This document shows, in pieces, positions 28,101 to 40,937 of a DNA stretch of 64,000 nt. Each line of letters opens with the position of its first letter. Position 1 is the first letter of the stretch. Location: assembly GCF_058153355.1 (NCBI RefSeq), contig NZ_CM177019.1; one strand, written 5' to 3'. The position numbers and the translations under genes were made by a program. The notes under the pieces are model-generated. The model did not search any database. It was not told the origin of the DNA and saw only the letters and a list, made by a program, of their open reading frames with translations.

Positions 28101-28751
28101 TTAATTTGATTTATTCGCATCCATCAACGCTTTTAACTGCTCCGGCGAAAACGGTGGTTTGCGTCGGTGCAACATCGCATGGCAATTAGGGCACACAGGA
28201 AGCAAATCATTAACTGGATCCAGCTGGTAATCCTCTTTAATGGCTGAAAGCGGCACCAGGTGATGCACATGGATAAAGCCTTCAGCGATATCACCATAGA
28301 TCTTCACCAGATCAACGCCGCATACTTTGCACTGGCATCCATGATGTTCGACCGCTTTATCTCGGGCCTTTTTATCGCGTTCATAGCGGTTTACTGTCAC
28401 CTTTATCGCCGCACCTTCAAGGTATGTCTCCTGCGACGGCAACTCATCCGGGAACAGAACGTCGGCTATGGGAGCCGCAGCGGCTTTATCCTGATGAATA
28501 TGAAATCCCTGCTCTATGAGTAGTTTGACGCATTTAGATTTTATTCCGCCGGTGAAATCCGCAGGGGTAAATTGCGTCCCCGTCATCAATGTCGCTGCGA
28601 TGCCAGCAATCGCCTTCGAGGGGTAACGTCGGCCATGATATTCAATCTCATACAACCGCGCAGGCTGGAACTGATGAGTTTCTCCCGCATCCCATAAATG
28701 GATAGCTTCGATGATATACCGCCGCGGAAGATGATCAGGGAGTTTATTCAT
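28101..28751 (-). CDS. HNH-family endonuclease (216 aa) with an uncharacterised N-terminal domain
   Basis: C-terminal CxxC...HVHHLVPLS...N...CPNCH zinc-finger/HNH motif; N-terminal ~130 aa not recognised; convergent with nanS (7-bp gap). Confidence 0.7.
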   Translation of the reverse strand: MNKLPDHLPRRYIIEAIHLWDAGETHQFQPARLYEIEYHGRRYPSKAIAGIAATLMTGTQFTPADFTGGIKSKCVKLLIEQGFHIHQDKAAAAPIADVLFPDELPSQETYLEGAAIKVTVNRYERDKKARDKAVEHHGCQCKVCGVDLVKIYGDIAEGFIHVHHLVPLSAIKEDYQLDPVNDLLPVCPNCHAMLHRRKPPFSPEQLKALMDANKSN

Positions 28752-28887
28752 GGAGAATGTCCTTATACGTTCTCAGAACAGGCAGCAAAAAAACAAATGA
28801 GATCAAGGTAATATATCTTCACTTGCAGGCTTGAACAGCAGAAAATTTGCGAGCATGATCGCAATTATTTCACTGCCAGGGATATCA

Positions 28888-29760
28888 ATGGCTTCCAGTA
28901 AATCGCTACAGCAGGCAATTGCCAACATAAAAATCTGGCACAAGGGTGAACAGCGCGCGCCGCATAAGCCATTGTTACTGCTATACGTATTAGCGGGATA
29001 CCTGAATGGACATCCGCGCCTTTTCGATTATGGCTCGGAAATCTACGAACCTCTGCACAGTTTACTGGAACGTTTTGGGCCACAGCGTTCACAGTACCGA
29101 CCTGATATGTCGTTCTGGCGATTACAAGGCGACGGATTCTGGCAATTACACAATGCCGAACTTTGCTCAACAGCAGGGAGTAGCCGACAACCGCCAGTGA
29201 AGGAACTGACCGAACACCGCGTTGCAGGCGGTTTCGATGAACAGCACTATGCCCTGGTAATCGGCAATAAAAAACTCATCAATACCCTAGCGCAACAGAT
29301 ACTCGAAGCGCACTTCACCGAGAGCATTCAGGAAGAAATTGCTGACGAGCTGGGTTTTGATCTCCAGCAAATCCGTAAACAGCGCGACCCGTTATTTCGC
29401 AAAAATGTATTACGCGCTTATAAATACCAGTGCGCGATATGTGGCTTTAATATGCGCCACGACGACACCACCGTCGCGTTGGAAGCGGCGCATATAAAAT
29501 GGAAACAGCACGGCGGTCCTTGTGAAATTCCTAATGGCCTGGCGCTTTGTGCAATACACCATAAAGCCTTTGATAAAGGATCGATTGGCCTGGATGAAAA
29601 TATGCGGGTACTGGTCTCGGATGCGGTAAACGGCGGAGGGATCGTTGAGAAACTATTCTGGGATTTTGACGGGAAAACTATTGCGTTACCACAGGTGCGT
29701 AAAAATTACCCTTTTGAGGGGTTTGTGGAGTGGCATCGAAAAGAGGTTTTTAGGGGGTGA
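28888..29760 (+). CDS. HNH nuclease-domain protein (~290 aa from ATG at 28888; ORF track begins at a TTG at 28831), candidate modification-dependent restriction endonuclease
   Basis: C-terminal CAICGF...EAAHIKW...NGLALCAIHHKAFD motif resembling the HNH_2-type nuclease fold; AGGGA Shine-Dalgarno before 28888; N-terminal domain unassigned. Confidence 0.65.
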   Translation: MASSKSLQQAIANIKIWHKGEQRAPHKPLLLLYVLAGYLNGHPRLFDYGSEIYEPLHSLLERFGPQRSQYRPDMSFWRLQGDGFWQLHNAELCSTAGSSRQPPVKELTEHRVAGGFDEQHYALVIGNKKLINTLAQQILEAHFTESIQEEIADELGFDLQQIRKQRDPLFRKNVLRAYKYQCAICGFNMRHDDTTVALEAAHIKWKQHGGPCEIPNGLALCAIHHKAFDKGSIGLDENMRVLVSDAVNGGGIVEKLFWDFDGKTIALPQVRKNYPFEGFVEWHRKEVFRG

Positions 29761-29822: not shown

Positions 29823-31133
29823 CTAAATAAATTCAGCCCCACTAGGAAAACGCAACTCTGATGTCTGTAAACTCTCGCCAATAAAGAAAGGTACAACCCA
29901 TAAACGTAACCTATTTTCCTTCTGATGGCTAAATTCATAAGGATGAGGAGATGGCTGATTAAATCCGTTATGATAGGGGTATATCAAAATCATATCACCT
30001 TCCCCCTCCTGGTAATTCAATCCATAGGCAAGCATTTGGTAGAGATCGGCTTGAGATTGCTCAAGACTGTCCTTTCTGCCATTAACTATCTTCCATTTAA
30101 CATCACAGGTAATAACTGAACCAGTAGTACTTTTACGAGGCCGTAAACAAATATCAGGCCGCAGCTTAAATAAAGCTTTACCGTTATAACTAATCAGATT
30201 TTTTGAACTTACCTGTGCGTCCACTCGCCATTTATCATAATAACGATAACGCATCCATGTCGTCACAAAAGATTCAAAAACAGCCTCCATCGGGAAAAGC
30301 AGTGAAAAAGCATTAACATCCCCATACATACAGTGTGGAGAATCGCCCAATAAAATCATCTTCGCCCACGCTAATGCTTGCTCATAGTGATGCATTTGTC
30401 TATCAAAGTGTAACTGCTCGAAAGCTATATAAGCATCATGAACTGACGTGATATTTTCAAAGTGAAACTGCAGCTGTGTTATCTGCTGTAATAATTGTGG
30501 ATTACTGGTCTGGCGACTAATCTTATTGATTGCAGTTTTGAGTATCCGGTTTTCCAGACGATTGACGCTGTACTCGTCATACTCTACCTGAAAACGATCC
30601 CGCCTAATACAGTTTTTGCTTAATTGTGCAGAGATCCGTAATCTTCCTTTCATCCATGGAAGATTATCTTCCTGACGTAAATAGTCACGTTTTAACCCTC
30701 TCTGCACAATCTTACGCACGCTCTCTATAAATTGTTGAATAAAGATATCCATCAGAGGCATTTTAGATATTTTGACGCCAGATTCAGAGGAGGCAATATG
30801 ACGAAATGATTTTAACGTACGTAACATCATCAGTAATTGTTGACGAACAGTATCCTCATTATCCTGACCTGTTTTAGGCAGGATTTCGAGAAATCGCCCC
30901 CCTGGCAGTGAGATTACTCCTGCATAGTTTTTTACCTGCAGCGTTTTTACTCCATTCCGGCTGCTAAGGGTGAGCAAACGATGAGTATTATCAGCATCGT
31001 CTTTCAGACAGCGCAGCTCAAGCCATTTAAATAGGTCTGCAGGTAGCACTACCGCATTATTTATACGGGCATCACCTTCCTCACTCACTAAATGCCCGTA
31101 TTCGAACACAGTGAAATGACTGGAAGATTTCAT
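29823..31133 (-). CDS. McrC-like nuclease subunit of a McrBC-type modification-dependent restriction system (start at MKSSSHF; ORF track TTG start at 31199)
   Basis: ATG overlaps the stop of the upstream McrB-like gene (ATGA overlap); size and position typical of McrC; sequence is not the K-12 McrC. Confidence 0.7.
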   Translation of the reverse strand: MKSSSHFTVFEYGHLVSEEGDARINNAVVLPADLFKWLELRCLKDDADNTHRLLTLSSRNGVKTLQVKNYAGVISLPGGRFLEILPKTGQDNEDTVRQQLLMMLRTLKSFRHIASSESGVKISKMPLMDIFIQQFIESVRKIVQRGLKRDYLRQEDNLPWMKGRLRISAQLSKNCIRRDRFQVEYDEYSVNRLENRILKTAINKISRQTSNPQLLQQITQLQFHFENITSVHDAYIAFEQLHFDRQMHHYEQALAWAKMILLGDSPHCMYGDVNAFSLLFPMEAVFESFVTTWMRYRYYDKWRVDAQVSSKNLISYNGKALFKLRPDICLRPRKSTTGSVITCDVKWKIVNGRKDSLEQSQADLYQMLAYGLNYQEGEGDMILIYPYHNGFNQPSPHPYEFSHQKENRLRLWVVPFFIGESLQTSELRFPSGAEFI

Positions 31134-33184
31134 TCCGCACTCCTGCGTTTTTCTTTTTGAGGTGCATAAATTTGCTGCCAGGCGATTGGATTGTCCCAAA
31201 CGTTGTCATCCTCTGCTGCCAGGTGAAAACTGGTTCCCAAGTCATCTGTTCCGTTATCACCAAAGAGATCGGCATACTTTTTCTGGTATTTCACCTCACG
31301 TACAAATTGAAGATCTGGTGCTTCCTCTTTTTGGTTATCAGCCAGTACCATGCGAATTTTTTGCCAGTCATTGTAAAAATATTCTTCCAGCAATGGTAGT
31401 ATCTTATTTCGCATAATCCGTTTGAATCTTTCAAATGCCAGAGCTTCGTCTTCTTTTGCCTGCACAACAGGGATAAAAAAAGCATGCCCCAGCATATGTT
31501 CTCTATCGTATAAAACCTGGATGCGATCGTTAAGCGTCTGCAATAGACGAGGCAGATCAATACCTTTAATGACAGTATCTTTCAGAACAGTAATATCTGG
31601 CAGCATCGCTTCAAAATCAAATCTGCGACGTAGTGCAGTATCAAGTGCAGTAAGCGAATGATCAGCAGTGTTCATGGTACCAATTAAATAAAGGTTATTC
31701 GGTACACTAAATGGAGTGGAAGAGTATGGCAGCAATACGCTAAGCGATTCTGGCTCACCAGCCCGTTTAGATGGCTCAATAAGGGTAATTAGTTCACCAA
31801 AAATTTTTGAAATATTACCCCGATTTATTTCATCAATAATGAGAACATAGTTTTCCTTTTTTTCTGAAGCTACGCTCTGAGTATTCAGAGGCAGATAACG
31901 TTGATTAATTAAATAGTTAAGGATACTGCGTACATAAGATGGATTATGTACTTTTGCTCGTGGATCCTGATAAACTTGCCGAATATCCTTCAAATAGGCA
32001 TTGTAACCCTGTCCTAAATCCTCTTTTTTCGATTGTGACGGAAAAATTCCAAAGTTGGTTTGACTTTTATACGTCAGCTGGAAGGCCTTACCCTGTTGTG
32101 TTTCCAGCGTGATATTTTCACCTTCAGATAAACGTTCTTGTAGGCGAGTAAGTGCGCTATCCAACATTTCCTGCGCACCAGCATGACCAAAGGCGGCATC
32201 CTCGCATATCTGTTTAAAAATACCTGCCTTTATTTCGTATTTTACATTACCGTCATCAGTAGTCTCAGCTCTTAAACCTTCAATAAACTCTTCATAACCA
32301 AAGCTCTGATGAAAGGTGATAAAACGCACTCGATTATCTTTGATAAGCTGATCATAAATCTTTTTCAACTCGCGACGTTTTTCACTCTCATCCTTACCCT
32401 CCTGCAGGGAGTAAGCGATCGGATCACAAATTTGTACAGCAAGCTCAATAGTACGATATGTTTTACCTGTACCTGGCGGGCCATAGAGAATTGTGTTTTT
32501 AGGCAATGGCGAACTTATAACATCATCTTCTTGCTCATTTTCTTGTAAAGCACTTTCGCTTCCAACTAAACCGATAGCATTTTTATCCTGAATTTCATAC
32601 GCATAGAGATGCCAAAGTGACATATTCAGCTCAATAGGGTCGATATCATCACCCAGCGCACGATTTAGCGTTTCTTTAAGATCAACATTGCGAGCCAGCC
32701 ACTCCCGTTCTCCGGAAAGACCTAGCTGGAAATGGTTGTTGCAATAATTGTAGCAACTAAAAAAATTATTAACATTCACGACACTGCTAATTTTTGATGG
32801 GTATATTGCTGCAAAAGCACGATTACAAAGAGCCCTATATACCTTATTTAATACTCCGTCCGCTTTAAGTTTGATAAGACGTTCAATGACCCGATTATAA
32901 TTTTCTTGTGTACACTCTTCTGCTATCTGACGGGTGAGCGTTAGAAGGTCTTTTTGTGCATTTTCAAATTCAACCAATGACATCCCACCTTGCATCAGGC
33001 TGGAGACACCATTGTCACGTTCATACCATACCTGCCGAATCGTGGCTTCAGAAAAGTTTGGTTTTTCGGCCTGAATCTGTTCTACAAGCTCGCGGTAGTG
33101 TTTGCCCCAAACTGAATTGTATTGATTATTTTTTTCAATTTGAGCACGAAAGAAGGGGGCTAATGCTGATGAATCCTGAACCAT
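31130..33184 (-). CDS. McrB-like AAA+ GTPase subunit (684 aa) with a divergent ~230-aa N-terminal domain
   Basis: Walker A LYGPPGTGKTY and McrB-signature MNTADHS...RRRF motifs; N-terminal region has no resemblance to the K-12 McrB DNA-binding domain. Confidence 0.78.
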   Translation of the reverse strand: MVQDSSALAPFFRAQIEKNNQYNSVWGKHYRELVEQIQAEKPNFSEATIRQVWYERDNGVSSLMQGGMSLVEFENAQKDLLTLTRQIAEECTQENYNRVIERLIKLKADGVLNKVYRALCNRAFAAIYPSKISSVVNVNNFFSCYNYCNNHFQLGLSGEREWLARNVDLKETLNRALGDDIDPIELNMSLWHLYAYEIQDKNAIGLVGSESALQENEQEDDVISSPLPKNTILYGPPGTGKTYRTIELAVQICDPIAYSLQEGKDESEKRRELKKIYDQLIKDNRVRFITFHQSFGYEEFIEGLRAETTDDGNVKYEIKAGIFKQICEDAAFGHAGAQEMLDSALTRLQERLSEGENITLETQQGKAFQLTYKSQTNFGIFPSQSKKEDLGQGYNAYLKDIRQVYQDPRAKVHNPSYVRSILNYLINQRYLPLNTQSVASEKKENYVLIIDEINRGNISKIFGELITLIEPSKRAGEPESLSVLLPYSSTPFSVPNNLYLIGTMNTADHSLTALDTALRRRFDFEAMLPDITVLKDTVIKGIDLPRLLQTLNDRIQVLYDREHMLGHAFFIPVVQAKEDEALAFERFKRIMRNKILPLLEEYFYNDWQKIRMVLADNQKEEAPDLQFVREVKYQKKYADLFGDNGTDDLGTSFHLAAEDDNVWDNPIAWQQIYAPQKEKRRSAE

Positions 33185-33542: not shown

Positions 33543-34376
33543 TCATTTTGCTGATAACGCTGACGGATAGTGCTTCGCCACAATGTCATTCATCTTATCC
33601 ACCAGATCCAGTCGCTTGAATGTGATGTGTCCACTGCCTTTCTGGTAATAGCGGATGACAAATAAATCGTCATTAAATACCTGCTCATGCGGGTGAGCAC
33701 TAACGAAGTCCATAAACCGAATCGCAACATCATGCCGGTTATCGGGAATGGCCTTCCCATCCAGCAGATAGAACATCCGTTCCAGATCGGCAAGCTGATC
33801 TCGCCGCCAGCCCCAGTGCAGGCTGTAACCCCATCGGTCATGCTTCACCAGATTGTTAACGATAATCTTCTTACCGAAATAACAGGGATTATTGGTTTTG
33901 TAATCCCAGCTCAATCCCTTAAATACATTGATAATCCCACGTTCGAAAACGTCATGCTTATTGTGGTGGAGTTGTTCAAAGGTACTCAGGATGTTGGCTT
34001 CGCTAATCGCCGGGAGATCGCCCTCCTCCAGGTTCTTTGCCCACTGACTGCGGGCTTCGGCATCCATCAGAGTCAACATCCCGGACTTCAGCATGAGATC
34101 GCGCCAGATGCTGCGATCGATATTGCGGGTGATCGCCGACATCGCTTTGTCGGTTGGTTGCATCAGCCAGCAGTCAAAGGCATATCCATTACGCATTCCC
34201 CAGGTTCCAGCCACATCACCGCCAATACTGGATGTCAGACTGGAGATATCATCCAGTTTTTGGATTAGCGTCGCTATCAGCTTCAGTGCGCTATCACGTC
34301 CTGTGACGATACGCTCAATATTGGTCGAGCGAATTATCTCGTTGTGATCGGTTAAGACTTCAGCTTCTGTTTGCAT
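33543..34376 (-). CDS. Hypothetical protein (277 aa), same strand and upstream of the McrBC-like pair; possibly a DUF4942-type protein (low confidence)
   Basis: Uninterrupted ORF, no recognised catalytic motif; located inside the defence island. Confidence 0.5.
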   Translation of the reverse strand: MQTEAEVLTDHNEIIRSTNIERIVTGRDSALKLIATLIQKLDDISSLTSSIGGDVAGTWGMRNGYAFDCWLMQPTDKAMSAITRNIDRSIWRDLMLKSGMLTLMDAEARSQWAKNLEEGDLPAISEANILSTFEQLHHNKHDVFERGIINVFKGLSWDYKTNNPCYFGKKIIVNNLVKHDRWGYSLHWGWRRDQLADLERMFYLLDGKAIPDNRHDVAIRFMDFVSAHPHEQVFNDDLFVIRYYQKGSGHITFKRLDLVDKMNDIVAKHYPSALSAK

Positions 34377-34682: not shown

Positions 34683-36239
34683 ATGACCAGTCTTCAGCAG
34701 CGCGCGGAGCTTCATCGCCAAATCTGGCAAATTGCTAACGATGTCAGAGGTTCGGTCGATGGATGGGATTTTAAGCAATACGTTCTGGGCGCGCTTTTCT
34801 ACCGTTTTATCAGCGAAAATTTTTCCAGCTATATTGAAGCCGGTGATGACAGCATCTGTTATGCGAAACTGGATGACAGCGTAATTACTGATGACATTAA
34901 AGACGATGCCATCAAAACCAAAGGCTACTTCATCTACCCAAGTCAGCTTTTCTGCAACGTAGCTGCGAAAGCAAATACCAATGACAGACTGAACGCAGAT
35001 TTAAACAGCATCTTCGTTGCTATCGAAAGTTCTGCTTACGGTTACCCTTCAGAAGCTGACATCAAAGGTTTGTTTGCTGATTTCGATACCACCAGTAACC
35101 GCCTGGGTAATACCGTTAAGGATAAAAATGCCCGCCTGGCCGCGGTTCTGAAAGGGGTTGAAGGGTTAAAGCTTGGCGACTTTAACGAACATCAGATTGA
35201 CCTGTTCGGCGATGCCTATGAGTTCCTGATTTCTAACTATGCGGCGAATGCCGGTAAGTCAGGCGGCGAGTTCTTTACACCGCAGCACGTCTCTAAGCTG
35301 ATTGCACAACTGGCTATGCACGGGCAGACCCACGTTAACAAAATCTACGACCCGGCAGCGGGTTCCGGTTCGCTGTTGTTGCAGGCTAAAAAGCAGTTTG
35401 ATGACCACATCATCGAAGAAGGTTTTTTTGGTCAGGAAATCAACCATACGACCTATAACCTGGCGCGTATGAACATGTTTTTGCACAACATCAACTACGA
35501 CAAGTTTGATATCAAGTTGGGCAATACGCTGACTGAGCCGCACTTCAGAGATGAAAAACCGTTTGACGCCATCGTATCTAACCCACCGTATTCGGTGAAA
35601 TGGATAGGCAGCGATGACCCGACGCTGATTAACGATGAACGTTTTGCCCCGGCTGGCGTCCTGGCCCCCAAATCAAAAGCTGACTTCGCCTTTGTACTAC
35701 ATGCGCTGAACTATCTTTCTGCCAAAGGTCGTGCTGCGATTGTCTGCTTCCCGGGTATTTTTTACCGTGGCGGCGCAGAGCAGAAAATCCGTCAGTATCT
35801 GGTTGATAATAACTATGTCGAAACCGTGATTTCACTGGCTCCGAACCTGTTCTTTGGCACCACCATTGCCGTCAATATTCTGGTGTTGTCTAAACATAAA
35901 ACCGATACCAAAGTTCAGTTTATTGACGCCAGCGAACTATTCAAAAAAGAGACTAACAACAACATTCTGACCGATGCCCATATCGAACAGATTATGCAGG
36001 TATTTGCCAGCAAGGAAGATGTTGCTCATCTGGCGAAATCTGTCGCGTTTGAGACCGTTGTCGCTAATGACTATAACCTGTCGGTAAGCAGCTATGTGGA
36101 AGCGAAAGATAACCGCGAAATTATCGATATCAGTGAGCTGAATGCTGAGCTGAAAACCACGGTCAGCAAAATCGACCAGTTGCGTAAAGATATTGATGCG
36201 ATTGTGGCTGAAATTGAAGGCTGCGAGGTGCAGAAATGA
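34683..36239 (+). CDS. hsdM: Type I restriction-modification system methyltransferase subunit HsdM (type IC, EcoR124-like)
   Basis: 518 aa; N6-adenine MTase motifs ([10 protein letters not shown] motif I; IVSNPPYS motif IV); closely resembles recalled EcoR124I HsdM. Confidence 0.93.
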
Positions 36240-37390
36240 ACGAGTTGAGTTATCTGGAAAAATTACTGGATGGGGTTGAGGTTGAGTGGTTGCCATTGGC
36301 TAAAGTTTGTCGTTTAATAAACGGGAGAGCATATAAGCAAGAAGAACTGCTTTCCAAAGGCAAATATCCAGTATTAAGAGTCGGTAATTTTTTTACTAAC
36401 CAAAATTGGTATTACTCAGATTTAGAATTAGATCAAGACAAGTATTGTGATAACGGTGACCTTTTATATGCTTGGTCCGCATCATTTGGTCCAAGAATTT
36501 GGCATGGGGGTAAATCTATTTACCATTATCACATATGGAAAGTGGTTCCAGATTCGAATCTTATTTGTAAACAGTTTCTATATTACTTGTTACAATGGGA
36601 TACTAAAGCACTTAAAGATGCACATAGCACTGGTTCTACTATGATGCACATCAGCAAAACTACAATTGAAAAAAGGTTAGTCCCCATCCCCTGCCCGGAT
36701 AATCCGGAAAAATCCCTTGCCATCCAGTCTGAAATCGTTCGGATTCTGGATAAATTTACTGCACTTACCGCTGAGCTTACCGCTGAGCTTAATATGCGAA
36801 AAAAACAGTACAACTACTATCTCGACCAGTTACTGAATCTTGAGGGTAGGGAAAATACTCGAGAAATGAGGATAGGTGATATTTATGATTTTCAGTATGG
36901 AACAGGCAATACAATTCCTAAATCTGGAGGGCAATATCCTGTTTATGGTAGCAACGGGATTGTAGGCTCCCATGACAAATATAACAGCGAAGACTCACCT
37001 GTTATTGGCCATATAGGTGCTTACGCAGGAATCGTTAACTGGGGCCAGGGTAAGCATTTTGTTACATACAACGGAGTTATTTGTAGGCACAAATCGAAGG
37101 AAGTTCTTCAAAAATACGCCTACTATTTATTACTTTTACAAGATTTCGGTTCAAAATCTAATAGTGCATCACAGCCTTTTGTTTCATATAACATATTAAA
37201 TGCTCCTATTGTTTTGGTTCCCCCTTTACAAGAGCAAGCTCGTATCGTCGCAATACTCGATAAATTCGACACCCTGACCAACTCCATCACCGAAGGTCTT
37301 CCGCGTGAAATCGAGTTGCGCCAGAAACAATACGAGTACTATCGTGATTTACTGTTCAGTTTCCCAAAACCTGAAACTCTCAGTAATTAA
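36236..37390 (+). CDS. hsdS: Type I R-M specificity subunit HsdS (type IC) with two target-recognition domains
   Basis: 384 aa; conserved central ([35 protein letters not shown]) and C-terminal ([33 protein letters not shown]) type IC regions flanking variable TRDs; 4-bp overlap with hsdM. Confidence 0.9.
36764..36787 (+). repeat. Two tandem copies of a 12-bp unit (CTTACCGCTGAG) encoding TAEL-TAEL in the HsdS central conserved region
   Basis: Perfect 12-bp tandem duplication seen in sequence; in type IC systems the copy number of this repeat sets the spacer length of the recognition site. Confidence 0.85.
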
Positions 37391-37511
37391 TTGACCATTA
37401 TTACAGACCGGACCATCTTAATATCCGGTCAGTATATAGACTATTTTTTACACGCCGGAAGTCACCATTAACCCCCTTCCGGCCCTTGCCAGACGGCACA
37501 AAGGATGCGCT

Positions 37512-40500
37512 ATGACTCATCAAACACACACCATTGCTGAATCCAATAACTTTATCGTTCTTGATAAGTACATCAAAGCTGAGCAAACAGGCGACAGCTA
37601 TCAGAGCGAATCGGACCTGGAACGTGAACTGATTCAGGACCTGCAAAATCAGGGCTATGAATTTATACCCGTAAAATCACAGTCAGCGATGCTGGCCAAC
37701 GTTCGGGAACAGCTTCAGAGCCTCAATGGTGTGGTGTTTAATGACAGCGAGTGGCGGCGTTTCACGGAGCAGTATCTGGATAACCCGAGCGATGGCATTC
37801 TGGATAAGACCCGTAAAATCCATATCGACTATATTTGCGACTTTATTTTTGATGACGAGCGACTTGAGAACATCTATTTGATAGATAAAAAGAATCTCAT
37901 GCGCAATAAGGTGCAGATTATCCAGCAGTTTGAACAGGCGGGTTCCCACTCTAACCGCTATGATGTCACGATCCTGATTAATGGCTTACCACTGGTACAA
38001 ATCGAACTGAAAAAGCGCGGCGTGGCGATTCGTGAGGCTTTCAACCAGATACATCGTTACAGTAAAGAGAGTTTTAACAGCGAAAATTCCCTGTTTAAGT
38101 ATCTGCAACTGTTTGTCATTTCTAACGGCACCGATACCCGTTACTTTGCCAACACCACAAAGCGCGATAAAAATAGTTTTGACTTCACCATGAACTGGGC
38201 GAAATCAGACAACACGCTGATTAAAGACCTCAAAGATTTTACCGCTACCTTTTTCCAGAAACATACTCTGCTTAATGTTCTGGTGAACTACAGCGTGTTC
38301 GATATTAGCCAGACGCTACTGGTGATGCGACCGTACCAGATTGCCGCCACCGAACGAATCTTATGGAAAATCAACAGCTCCTATAAAGCGAAAAACTGGT
38401 CTACCCCCGAAAGCGGTGGCTTTATCTGGCACACCACCGGTTCCGGTAAAACCCTGACCAGCTTTAAAGCTGCGCGTCTGGCAACAGAGCTGGACTTTAT
38501 TGATAAAGTCTTCTTCGTGGTCGACAGAAAAGACCTCGATTACCAGACCATGAAGGAATATCAGCGTTTTTCGCCAGATAGTGTTAACGGTTCGGAAAAT
38601 ACCGCAGGCCTGAAACGAAATCTGGATAAGGACGATAACAAAATTATCGTCACCACTATTCAGAAACTTAATAACCTGATGAAAGCAGAAAGCGACCTGC
38701 CTGTATACAATCAGCAAGTGGTGTTTATATTTGATGAATGTCACCGCAGCCAGTTTGGAGAAGCGCAGAAAAACCTGAAGAAGAAATTCAAACGCTATTA
38801 TCAGTTTGGTTTTACCGGCACACCTATTTTCCCGGAAAACGCTTTAGGCTCAGAAACGACCGCCAGCGTATTTGGTCGTGAATTGCATTCGTATGTGATT
38901 ACCGATGCGATTCGTGATGAAAAAGTGCTCAAATTCAAGGTGGACTATAACGATGTGCGGCCACAATTTAAGTCTTTAGAGACAGAAACCGACGAGAAAA
39001 AACTGAGTGCGGCTGAAAATCAGCAGGCGTTTCTTCATCCCATGCGTATACAGGAAATTACGCAATATATTCTGAATAACTTCCGCCAGAAGACCCACCG
39101 TACTTTCCCAGGTTCCAAAGGCTTTAATGCCATGCTGGCAGTGAGTAGCGTGGATGCCGCGAAAGCCTATTACGCGACGTTTAAACGGTTACAAGAGGAA
39201 GCCGCTAATAAATCTGCTACCTATAAACCACTACGTGTTGCGACAATCTTCTCCTTTGCCGCTAATGAAGAACAAAATGCCATTGGTGAAATTTCCGATG
39301 AAACTTTTGATACCAGCGCAATGGACAGCAGTGCTAAAGAGTTTCTCGACGCTGCAATTCGTGAATATAACAGCTATTTTAAAACTAACTTCAGTACCGA
39401 CAGTAACGGTTTTCAGAACTACTATCGTGATTTAGCCCAACGGGTTAAAAATCAGGATATCGATCTGTTAATTGTCGTTGGGATGTTTTTAACCGGCTTC
39501 GACGCTCCAACATTGAACACGCTATTCGTCGATAAAAACTTGCGTTTTCACGGCCTGATGCAGGCATTTTCCCGCACCAACCGCATTTATGACGCCACTA
39601 AAACCTTCGGTAACATCGTCACTTTTCGGGATCTGGAACGCTCAACCATTGATGCCATAACGCTGTTTGGTGATAAAAATACCAAAAATGTGGTGTTAGA
39701 AAAGAGTTATGCCGAGTATATGGAAGGCTTTACAGATGCTGCCACTGGTGAAGCTAAACGCGGCTTTATGGCAGTAGTTTCAGAACTGGAACAACGGTTC
39801 CCTGACCCTGCCAGTATTGAAAGTGAAAAAGAGAAGAAAGACTTCGTTAAACTGTTTGGTGAATACCTGCGCGCCGAGAACATCCTGCAAAACTATGATG
39901 AATTTGCCACGCTGAAAGCCCTGCAACAAATCGATCTTAGCGATCCTGTTGCGGTAGAAAAATTCAAAGCAGAACATTATGTGGATGATGAAAAGTTTGC
40001 TGAATTACAAACGATTCGTCTCCCTGCTGAACGTAAGATTCAGGATTATCGTTCGGCCTATAACGATATTCGTGACTGGCAGCGCCGCGAGAAAGAAGCT
40101 GACAAAAAAGAAAAATCAACCACTGACTGGGATGACGTGGTTTTTGAGGTCGATTTGCTGAAGTCTCAGGAAATAAACCTGGATTATATCCTTGGACTGA
40201 TTTTCGAACACAACAGACAAAACAAAGGTAAGGGCGAAATGACCGAAGAGGTCAAACGCTTAATTCGTTCGAGCCTTGGGAACCGTGCCAAAGAAGGCCT
40301 GGTGGTCGATTTTATTCAACAAACGAACCTGGATGATTTGCCGGATAAAGCCAGTATCATTGACGCGTTCTTTATCTTTGCTCAACGCGAACAGCAACGT
40401 GAAGCAGAAGCGTTGATTAAAGAAGAAAATCTCAATGAAGAAGCAGCGAAACGCTATATTCGCACGTCTTTAAAACGCGAATACGCCACCGAAAATGGCA

Positions 40501-40628
40501 CAGAATTAAACGAGACGTTACCAAAACTTAGTCCGTTAAACCCGCAATATAAAACGAAAAAACAGACGGTTTTCCAGAAGATCGTCGCGTTTATTGAGAA
40601 GTTTAAAGGTGTAGGCGGGCAGATATAA
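37512..40628 (+). CDS. hsdR: Type I restriction enzyme R subunit HsdR (type IC, EcoR124-like), 1038 aa
   Basis: SF2 helicase motifs ([24 protein letters not shown]) and N-terminal nuclease region; near-identical over long stretches to recalled EcoR124I HsdR. Confidence 0.93.
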
Positions 40629-40852: not shown

Positions 40853-40937
40853 TGGTGCCGAAGGCCGGACTCGAACCGGCACGTATTTCTACGGTTGATT
40901 TTGAATCAACTGCGTCTACCGATTTCGCCACTTCGGC
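40853..40937 (-). tRNA. leuX: tRNA-Leu (anticodon CAA), leuX
   Basis: 85-nt sequence on the minus strand matches recalled leuX (GCCGAAGTGGCGAAATCGGTAGACGCAGTTGATTCAAAATCAACCGTAGAAATACGTGCCGGTTCGAGTCCGGCCTTCGGCACCA); its 3' end faces the island. Confidence 0.95.

Follow-up and report, generated by a model that had tools for sequence, protein, structure and literature searches.

Short tandem repeats of four amino acids are characteristic of type IC hsdS genes (PMC10030836), and the locus discussed here, an hsdS gene with two perfect copies of a 12-bp unit, raises the question of whether its repeat is a spacer of this kind and, if it is, how readily the number of units could change and reset the target of the enzyme. 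The gene lies in a stretch of DNA of 64,000 nucleotides, called the window below. A preliminary description had proposed that the repeat gives the locus a potential for specificity switching equivalent to the one that separates EcoR124I from EcoR124II. Our reading, which we hold with considerable confidence, is that the tract is the TAEL spacer repeat in the D1 helix of an EcoR124-family HsdS, in which the number of units sets the gap of the target sequence and whole units are gained and lost. How often this occurs is a separate matter, and one on which the sampled relatives of the allele are informative.

The repeat consists of two perfect copies of CTTACCGCTGAG at positions 36764 to 36787 of the plus strand, where the sequence reads CTTACCGCTGAGCTTACCGCTGAG, exactly as the preliminary description had it. 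In Tandem Repeats Finder the tract runs from 36764 to 36791, with period 12, 2.3 copies, 100% matches and no indels, the partial third unit being the 4-bp stretch CTTA that ends at 36791. Codon 177 of hsdS is CTT and the DNA units, read in frame, give LTAE-LTAE; the next CTT closes TAEL-TAEL, and the tract as a whole encodes L-TAEL-TAEL. The placement of TAEL-TAEL in the central region of HsdS, also put forward earlier, is likewise correct, namely at residues 178-185 (nucleotides 36767-36790) in the frame of the ORF 36236-37390. No other perfect array with period 12 exists in the 64 kb of the window, and exact CTTACCGCTGAG is found there at the two adjacent hsdS positions and nowhere else. If up to one mismatch is allowed, the window contains five matches, compared with 0.20 expected, a number reached in none of 100 shuffles. 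By our own arithmetic, a perfect 12-bp tandem duplication would arise by chance approximately 64000/4^12, or about 0.004, times per window. Two further repeats can be mentioned for completeness. The 5' end of hsdR carries an imperfect 12-bp tandem repeat (37826-37848; 1.9 copies, 90%), which is probably a chance occurrence, and a 24-bp tandem duplication with 95% identity (57108-57155) lies within a 555-aa ORF on the minus strand (56538-58205), where it encodes DFSRDQSK-DFSCDQSK; the protein of this ORF had no PADLOC match.

The genes around the repeat stand in the order hsdM-hsdS-hsdR, all three on the plus strand and all three intact. HsdM (34683-36239, 518 aa) scores 649 bits against TIGR00497, where the cutoff is 243, and aligns over its full length with EcoR124 HsdM (7bst_D, 1155 bits), while HsdR (37512-40628, 1038 aa) scores 756 bits against TIGR00348, where the cutoff is 285, and matches EcoR124I HsdR (2w00_A) with 2257 bits over residues 1-1038. 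In other words, both proteins are near-identical to the EcoR124 subunits, aligned end to end. Together with the three conserved HsdS blocks around the target recognition domains (TRDs) and the tandem TAEL x2, this homology places the system, judged by its sequence, as an intact restriction-modification system of the EcoR124 family, that is, of type IC. Just 121 bp (37391-37511) separate hsdS from hsdR, which rules out a prrC-like anticodon nuclease between the two genes of the kind seen in EcoPrrI, and an inverting or shufflon arrangement is ruled out by the single hsdS and the lack of a recombinase at the locus.

The system forms the leuX-proximal end of a restriction and defence island of approximately 12.6 kb (about 28.1-40.7 kb), with nan genes on the other side. 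The boundary is marked by tRNA-Leu(CAA), leuX, at 40853-40937 on the minus strand, as annotated in the relative PE15. The island further contains, from the nan side, two nuclease genes: the first (28101-28751) is on the minus strand and encodes an HNH/type IV-like nuclease, and the second (28831-29760) is on the plus strand and encodes an HNH protein whose counterparts in relatives are annotated as a restriction endonuclease that binds phosphorothioated DNA. These are followed, on the minus strand, by McrC-like and McrB-like genes at 29823-33184, the scores of which both fall far short of the canonical McrBC cutoffs, and by a DUF4942 gene at 33543-34376. Relatives of the island in which the type IC system is decaying are also found: in E. 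coli PE15 (L001, 7684-10501) an IS3 element sits within hsdM, and in a second relative, an assembly of SRR22135610 (L008, 1335-3646), hsdM is shortened and hsdS frameshifted.

The hsdS gene itself (36236-37390, 384 aa) encodes a type IC specificity subunit and starts in an ATGA overlap with the hsdM stop. A database protein identical to it, P0001 from E. coli (EGO8352954.1, HFG3510747.1), carries the Pfam domain PF01420, Methylase_S. The best match among solved structures is the specificity subunit of EcoR124 (7bst_A, E = 4e-67), with which HsdS aligns in three blocks, at the N-terminus, in the central region and at the C-terminus, and a central stretch of 46 residues (PIPCP...NYY) is identical between the two proteins. 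The TRDs that lie between these blocks, TRD1 at approximately residues 20-148 and TRD2 at approximately residues 201-335, do not align to 7bst_A, and we found no solved or characterized match for either. Since they are unrelated to the TRDs of EcoR124I, the half-sites of the window enzyme are expected to be other than GAA and RTCG. The central conserved region (residues 149-200, 36680-36835), identified through its identity with 7bst_A, contains the first coiled-coil helix, D1, between the TRDs, a role assigned following PMC3874165, and the distal conserved region (residues 340-384, 37253-37387), aligned to the same structure, contains its partner helix, D2. The central linker from ILDKF to RKKQY measures 13 aa in HsdS. 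The equivalent linker of the distal helix measures 17 aa, which is the length that the central linker would have with three TAEL units, and this agrees with a review in which three units are called the 'optimum' (PMC3874165). Two residues of the protein are unusual. Residue 196 (36821-36823, CTC) is a leucine at a position of the QYNYYRD motif where a near-invariant arginine is found elsewhere; among the 120 closest homologues listed this leucine is shared only by P0001, P0006 and P0031, and among the listed matches of our cross-species sample only by L086. Residue 2 gives MNELSY instead of the usual MSELSY.

What would two such units mean for the enzyme? Here the literature is explicit. EcoR124I has two TAEL units and recognizes GAA N6 RTCG, EcoR124II has three and recognizes GAA N7 RTCG, and the change from one to the other is attributed to unequal crossing-over (PMC3874165); the facts given in the preliminary description thus agree with the published record. 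The same review, by Loenen et al., documents switching from R124 to R124/3 in vivo, reports three units and N7 gaps for EcoDXXI and EcoPrrI, and describes EcoR124I/EcoDXXI hybrids in which an altered number of units altered the gap as predicted; with each unit helix D1 becomes longer, the TRDs are rotated and come to lie about one base-pair step further apart, and the gap changes by 1 bp (PMC3874165). The correspondence extends to the DNA. Namely, the EcoR124II mutagenesis primers ctgcacttaccgctgagctt and accgctgagcttaacatgcg contain ...ctgcaCTTACCGCTGAGctt... (PMC10644984), which shows that EcoR124 and the window share CTTACCGCTGAG as their DNA unit. We counted as repeats of the family tetra-amino-acid units of the types TAEL, LEAT, SEAL and TSEL in the central conserved region.

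Following this rule, the number of four-residue units would set the distance and the relative rotation of the two TRDs, and the TRD spacing would in turn determine how many non-specific base pairs separate the two halves of the recognition sequence. For the window enzyme, two units would give a spacing of the EcoR124I type, with the methylated adenines 7 nt apart, corresponding to N6 if the half-sites are 3 and 4 bp long. The two 12-bp units and the 4-bp partial unit do not differ in any base, which would allow whole in-frame units to be added or removed by slippage during replication or by unequal crossing-over; gene conversion with a second type IC system of the same cell as donor would be a viable alternative route. 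A change in unit number would leave the half-sites as they are and alter the gap by 1 bp for each unit, such that a third unit would make it 1 bp longer. Enzymes of type IC are efficient in methylating DNA that is unmodified, and their restriction activity is governed through assembly (PMC12707154); we infer from this that a cell can survive such a change of specificity. For the window enzyme, a dependence of the motif spacer on copy number would hold by analogy with EcoR124I/II, the EcoDXXI hybrids and NgoAV, the systems for which it is described in the literature.

Turning to the natural variation in E. coli, a synthetic three-copy query matched 1357 records among complete genomes of this species, many of them aligning along the full 154 nt without a gap, and plasmid records gave a similar picture. 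Copy number was assigned in a 'spread' sample of 60 of these records from the span of the record relative to that of the query, which gave about 29 two-copy and 24 three-copy loci, one locus each with four and five copies, and five that were unclassifiable; the records are not phylogenetically independent, and these proportions are descriptive. Classification by bands of BLAST identity proved unreliable, as two-copy loci align to three- and four-copy queries in split pieces of high identity, and a 63-aa protein query made from a three-copy central region, meant for sampling three-copy alleles, was dropped when it returned only gene fragments. Translation verified a five-copy allele on the NT1F10 chromosome (L002, 1007-2242, WP_057080931.1), a four-copy allele on pDAM_1 (L003, 1073-2239) and a one-copy allele on p98210 (L004, 1022-2281), as well as two three-copy alleles. 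One-copy alleles are rare in E. coli, and the top E. coli matches to a four-copy query contained no four-copy allele. The hsdS genes with five, four and one units adjoin hsdM and hsdR genes annotated as CDS, the hsdM of NT1F10 being marked as partial. A search of the available literature found no report on the gap recognized by natural enzymes with one, four or five units. Closer to the window allele, the proteins P0001-P0005, which are near-identical to it, all have two copies, as do 118 of the 120 closest homologues listed, a list that is biased towards the copy number of the query and towards shared TRDs and from which we draw no estimate of frequency. It should also be noted that clustering at 90% identity conceals copy-number variants.

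A more direct view of gain and loss comes from alleles that differ in nothing else. For this purpose, the number of units was edited in silico and the exact resulting protein was looked up among approximately 15 billion sequences. The common plasmid allele with three units, WP_001617890.1, has an exact two-unit sibling on at least 1000 contigs (P0190) and an exact one-unit sibling on 28 (P0191). The chromosomal three-unit allele L006 has an exact two-unit sibling on 54 contigs (P0205), the five-unit allele L002 has one on 63 contigs (P0174), and the four-unit allele L003 has one as well (P0189). The cluster of P0174 also includes P0176, a protein with the three units TAEL-TAKL-TAEL (33 contigs). 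P0108, a two-unit protein found on at least 1000 contigs and the commonest allele with the TRD1 of the window, has a one-unit sibling on 7 contigs (P0121). When the loci with one, two and three units are compared as DNA across 2984 aligned columns, the only differences between them are two SNPs, both in hsdM, and the presence or absence of whole CTTACCGCTGAG units. Gain or loss of the 12-bp unit, in frame and in otherwise identical genes, is therefore a natural occurrence, and the built-in potential for switching that had been claimed for this repeat finds its support in these otherwise identical alleles.

Does the same hold for the allele in the window? Among the approximately 15 billion proteins, there was no exact three-copy or one-copy variant of the window HsdS or of its closest relative, P0002. 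The search was carried to 16 two-copy alleles in all, namely the window allele, P0002 and 14 others that share a TRD with the window, some of them sampled on tens to more than 1000 contigs, and an exact three-copy sibling was found for none of the 16 among the same proteins. All four of the tested alleles with three, four or five units have an exact two-unit sibling, whereas none of the 16 two-unit alleles has a three-unit one. This asymmetry may come from the choice of alleles, each of the 16 having a TRD in common with the window, or from a bias in the direction or the survival of the changes.

The one derivative of the window allele that we did find is a loss. The Logan assembly of SRR22135610 (L008) encodes a protein, P0006, present on 5 contigs, and its hsdS differs from that of the window at three places downstream of 36293: an exact deletion of 36764-36775, which is one unit; a G-to-A change at 36785, which turns TAEL into TAKL (E-to-K); and a 1-bp deletion at 37278, which shifts the frame in the distal helix. 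The hsdM of this locus is called short, at 389 aa. A unit has thus been lost in the lineage of the window allele, in a system that appears to be decaying, and the loss may reflect this decay and not a functional switch. The proposed check of relatives for variants with one, two and three copies is thus positive at the level of the family, where copy number runs from one to five and includes isogenic series, while for the window allele itself it holds for a one-unit derivative and not for a three-copy form. As a separate observation, the change from TAEL to TAKL has turned up repeatedly, in alleles and genera unrelated to each other: in E. coli it is found in two alleles (P0006/L008 and P0176), and it is also seen in L066 and L077, with Paenalcaligenes and Photorhabdus (TAKL-TAKL-TAEF) as the occurrences outside E. 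coli.

The pattern is by no means confined to E. coli. In species-representative genomes, one per species, we searched with a degenerate pattern that allowed a linker of 30-60 nt and one to three units, and at least 120 loci matched, from Proteobacteria, Verrucomicrobia, Planctomycetota, Cyanobacteria, Firmicutes, Bacteroidota, Spirochaetes and Chlorobi. Among the 119 matches listed, the linker measured 30 nt in 4, 42 nt in 75 and 54 nt in 40, corresponding to one, two and three units, and no other length was present. What is more, in the matches listed the units are homogenized within single genes (TTEL x3, IAEL x2, ITEL x2, TNEL x2), all units being identical at the DNA level in 63 of 115 genes. 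The mean difference per unit was 0.55 within genes and 2.10 between genes in these matches, with none of 2000 permutations as low, a statistic that is partly confounded by the codon bias of each genome. The non-synonymous variants shared by the units of one gene argue for an ongoing turnover of units.

Several other explanations should be weighed against this background. One could propose that the repeat is a static, inherited spacer of the coiled coil, that its copy number is effectively fixed in the lineage, and that the differences between alleles are spread mainly by recombination or conversion among co-resident type IC systems, on the chromosome and on plasmids, and not by slippage in situ. 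The uniform two copies of P0001-P0005 and the lack of three-copy siblings for the 16 two-copy alleles agree with such a proposal, as do the up to six type IC copies per E. coli genome, which could act as donors for conversion, and the flanks, which are more than 95% identical between alleles. However, isogenic loci with one, two and three copies differ within hsdS by whole units only, and the rare four- and five-copy alleles with common two-copy siblings are not easily explained by conversion when the abundant donors have two or three copies. The homogenization of variant units in single genes across phyla and the published in vivo switching from R124 to R124/3 (PMC3874165) also speak against it, and we consider a static spacer unlikely, although it is the alternative that we take most seriously.

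At the other extreme, the tract might be a fast, phase-variable contingency locus, similar to the simple sequence repeat (SSR) tracts in hsdS and mod genes of Haemophilus and Neisseria, with mixed methylomes within a single clone. The perfect DNA repeat, the in-frame nature of the changes and the widespread polymorphism in copy number could all be read in this sense, but with just 2.3 units of 12 bp the tract is far below those for which high slippage rates are seen, the 16 alleles without a three-copy sibling include some sampled on tens to at least 1000 contigs, and in a systematic survey of type I systems with phase variation the TAEL tract is set apart as a fixed feature of the coiled coil (PMC7383803). 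We regard fast phase variation as highly improbable on these grounds. Finally, that the repeat arose by chance or through an error of assembly and has no functional meaning is barely conceivable, as nothing speaks in its favor, and given an expectation of about 0.004 per window and the presence of the repeat at the matching position in thousands of independent assemblies as well as in the sequence of the solved EcoR124 structure.

We are thus led back to a spacer repeat from which whole units are gained and lost, at a rate that appears to be low. Two-copy alleles evidently seldom expand. The lack of three-copy siblings for any of the 16 alleles and the very short tract of 2.3 units imply a low rate of switching, and they point to a low-rate mutational hotspot with sporadic changes and not to high-frequency phase variation. 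One can also entertain, tentatively and with more doubt than conviction, a wider picture in which the TAEL tract acts as a population-level dial of specificity across many phyla, with recurrent gain and loss of units, and in which the persisting alleles with one, four or five copies (P0191, for instance) would be functional, with N5, N8, N9 or relaxed gaps that are undocumented in nature; the allele in the window would then be a dial set at two.

How much of this is new? The potential for switching is a generic, defining trait of type IC hsdS and is not special to the window locus, and the original observation restates a property of type IC systems that was published long ago, in a new and uncharacterized allele. 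At the locus itself the gain amounts to little beyond a correct annotation, that is, an EcoR124-family system with a gap length that is predictable from the number of repeats. A modest addition lies in the population data, namely that in E. coli alleles with two copies are about as common as those with three, that rare alleles with one, four and five copies occur, that isogenic series are found, that the linker is quantized and that turnover is infrequent. These points may be of use in the interpretation of methylomes, where half-sites can be alike and the gap different, in predicting barriers to the transfer of plasmids and phages between closely related strains, and in the naming of type I alleles.

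Among the known systems, EcoR124I/II are the closest to the one described here. They share with it the gene order hsdM-hsdS-hsdR, a near-identical HsdR (1038 aa) and HsdM, and the conserved regions of HsdS, and in EcoR124I the central region of HsdS is identical, including TAEL x2, with a match in the 12-bp DNA unit as well. The differences are equally clear. Both TRDs of the window HsdS are unrelated in sequence to those of EcoR124I/II, and the QYNYYRD motif carries an R-to-L change; EcoR124I/II reside on the E. coli plasmid R124, whereas the window system lies on the chromosome, within the leuX island; and the EcoR124 pair exists with two and three copies, whereas the window allele is without a three-copy partner on record. 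EcoDXXI and EcoPrrI belong to the same family and have the same repeat, but with three units instead of two. In NgoAV, a type IC system of N. gonorrhoeae, natural differences in the number of LEAT repeats match the targets GACN6TGC and GACN7TGC (PMC6789123); it thus resembles the window locus in the natural variation of a tetra-amino-acid repeat, although the sequence of the unit is another one and its specificity depends also on a homopolymer frameshift that truncates HsdS, a kind of tract that we did not see in the hsdS of the window. The SSR-containing, phase-variable hsdS and hsdM genes (Atack et al. 2020, PMC7383803) are similar in that a repeat tract in a type I gene affects expression or specificity, but their tracts are long runs of units of 1-5 bp or more with frequent shifts of frame, in contrast to the two in-frame 12-bp units here. 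Lastly, inverting loci with multiple hsdS genes, such as the pneumococcal SpnD39III/ivr and tvr (PMC6265443), also change specificity without new genes, but they need silent hsdS copies, inverted repeats and a recombinase, whereas the window system has a single hsdS and no recombinase, and its specificity would change through the number of units in one short tract.
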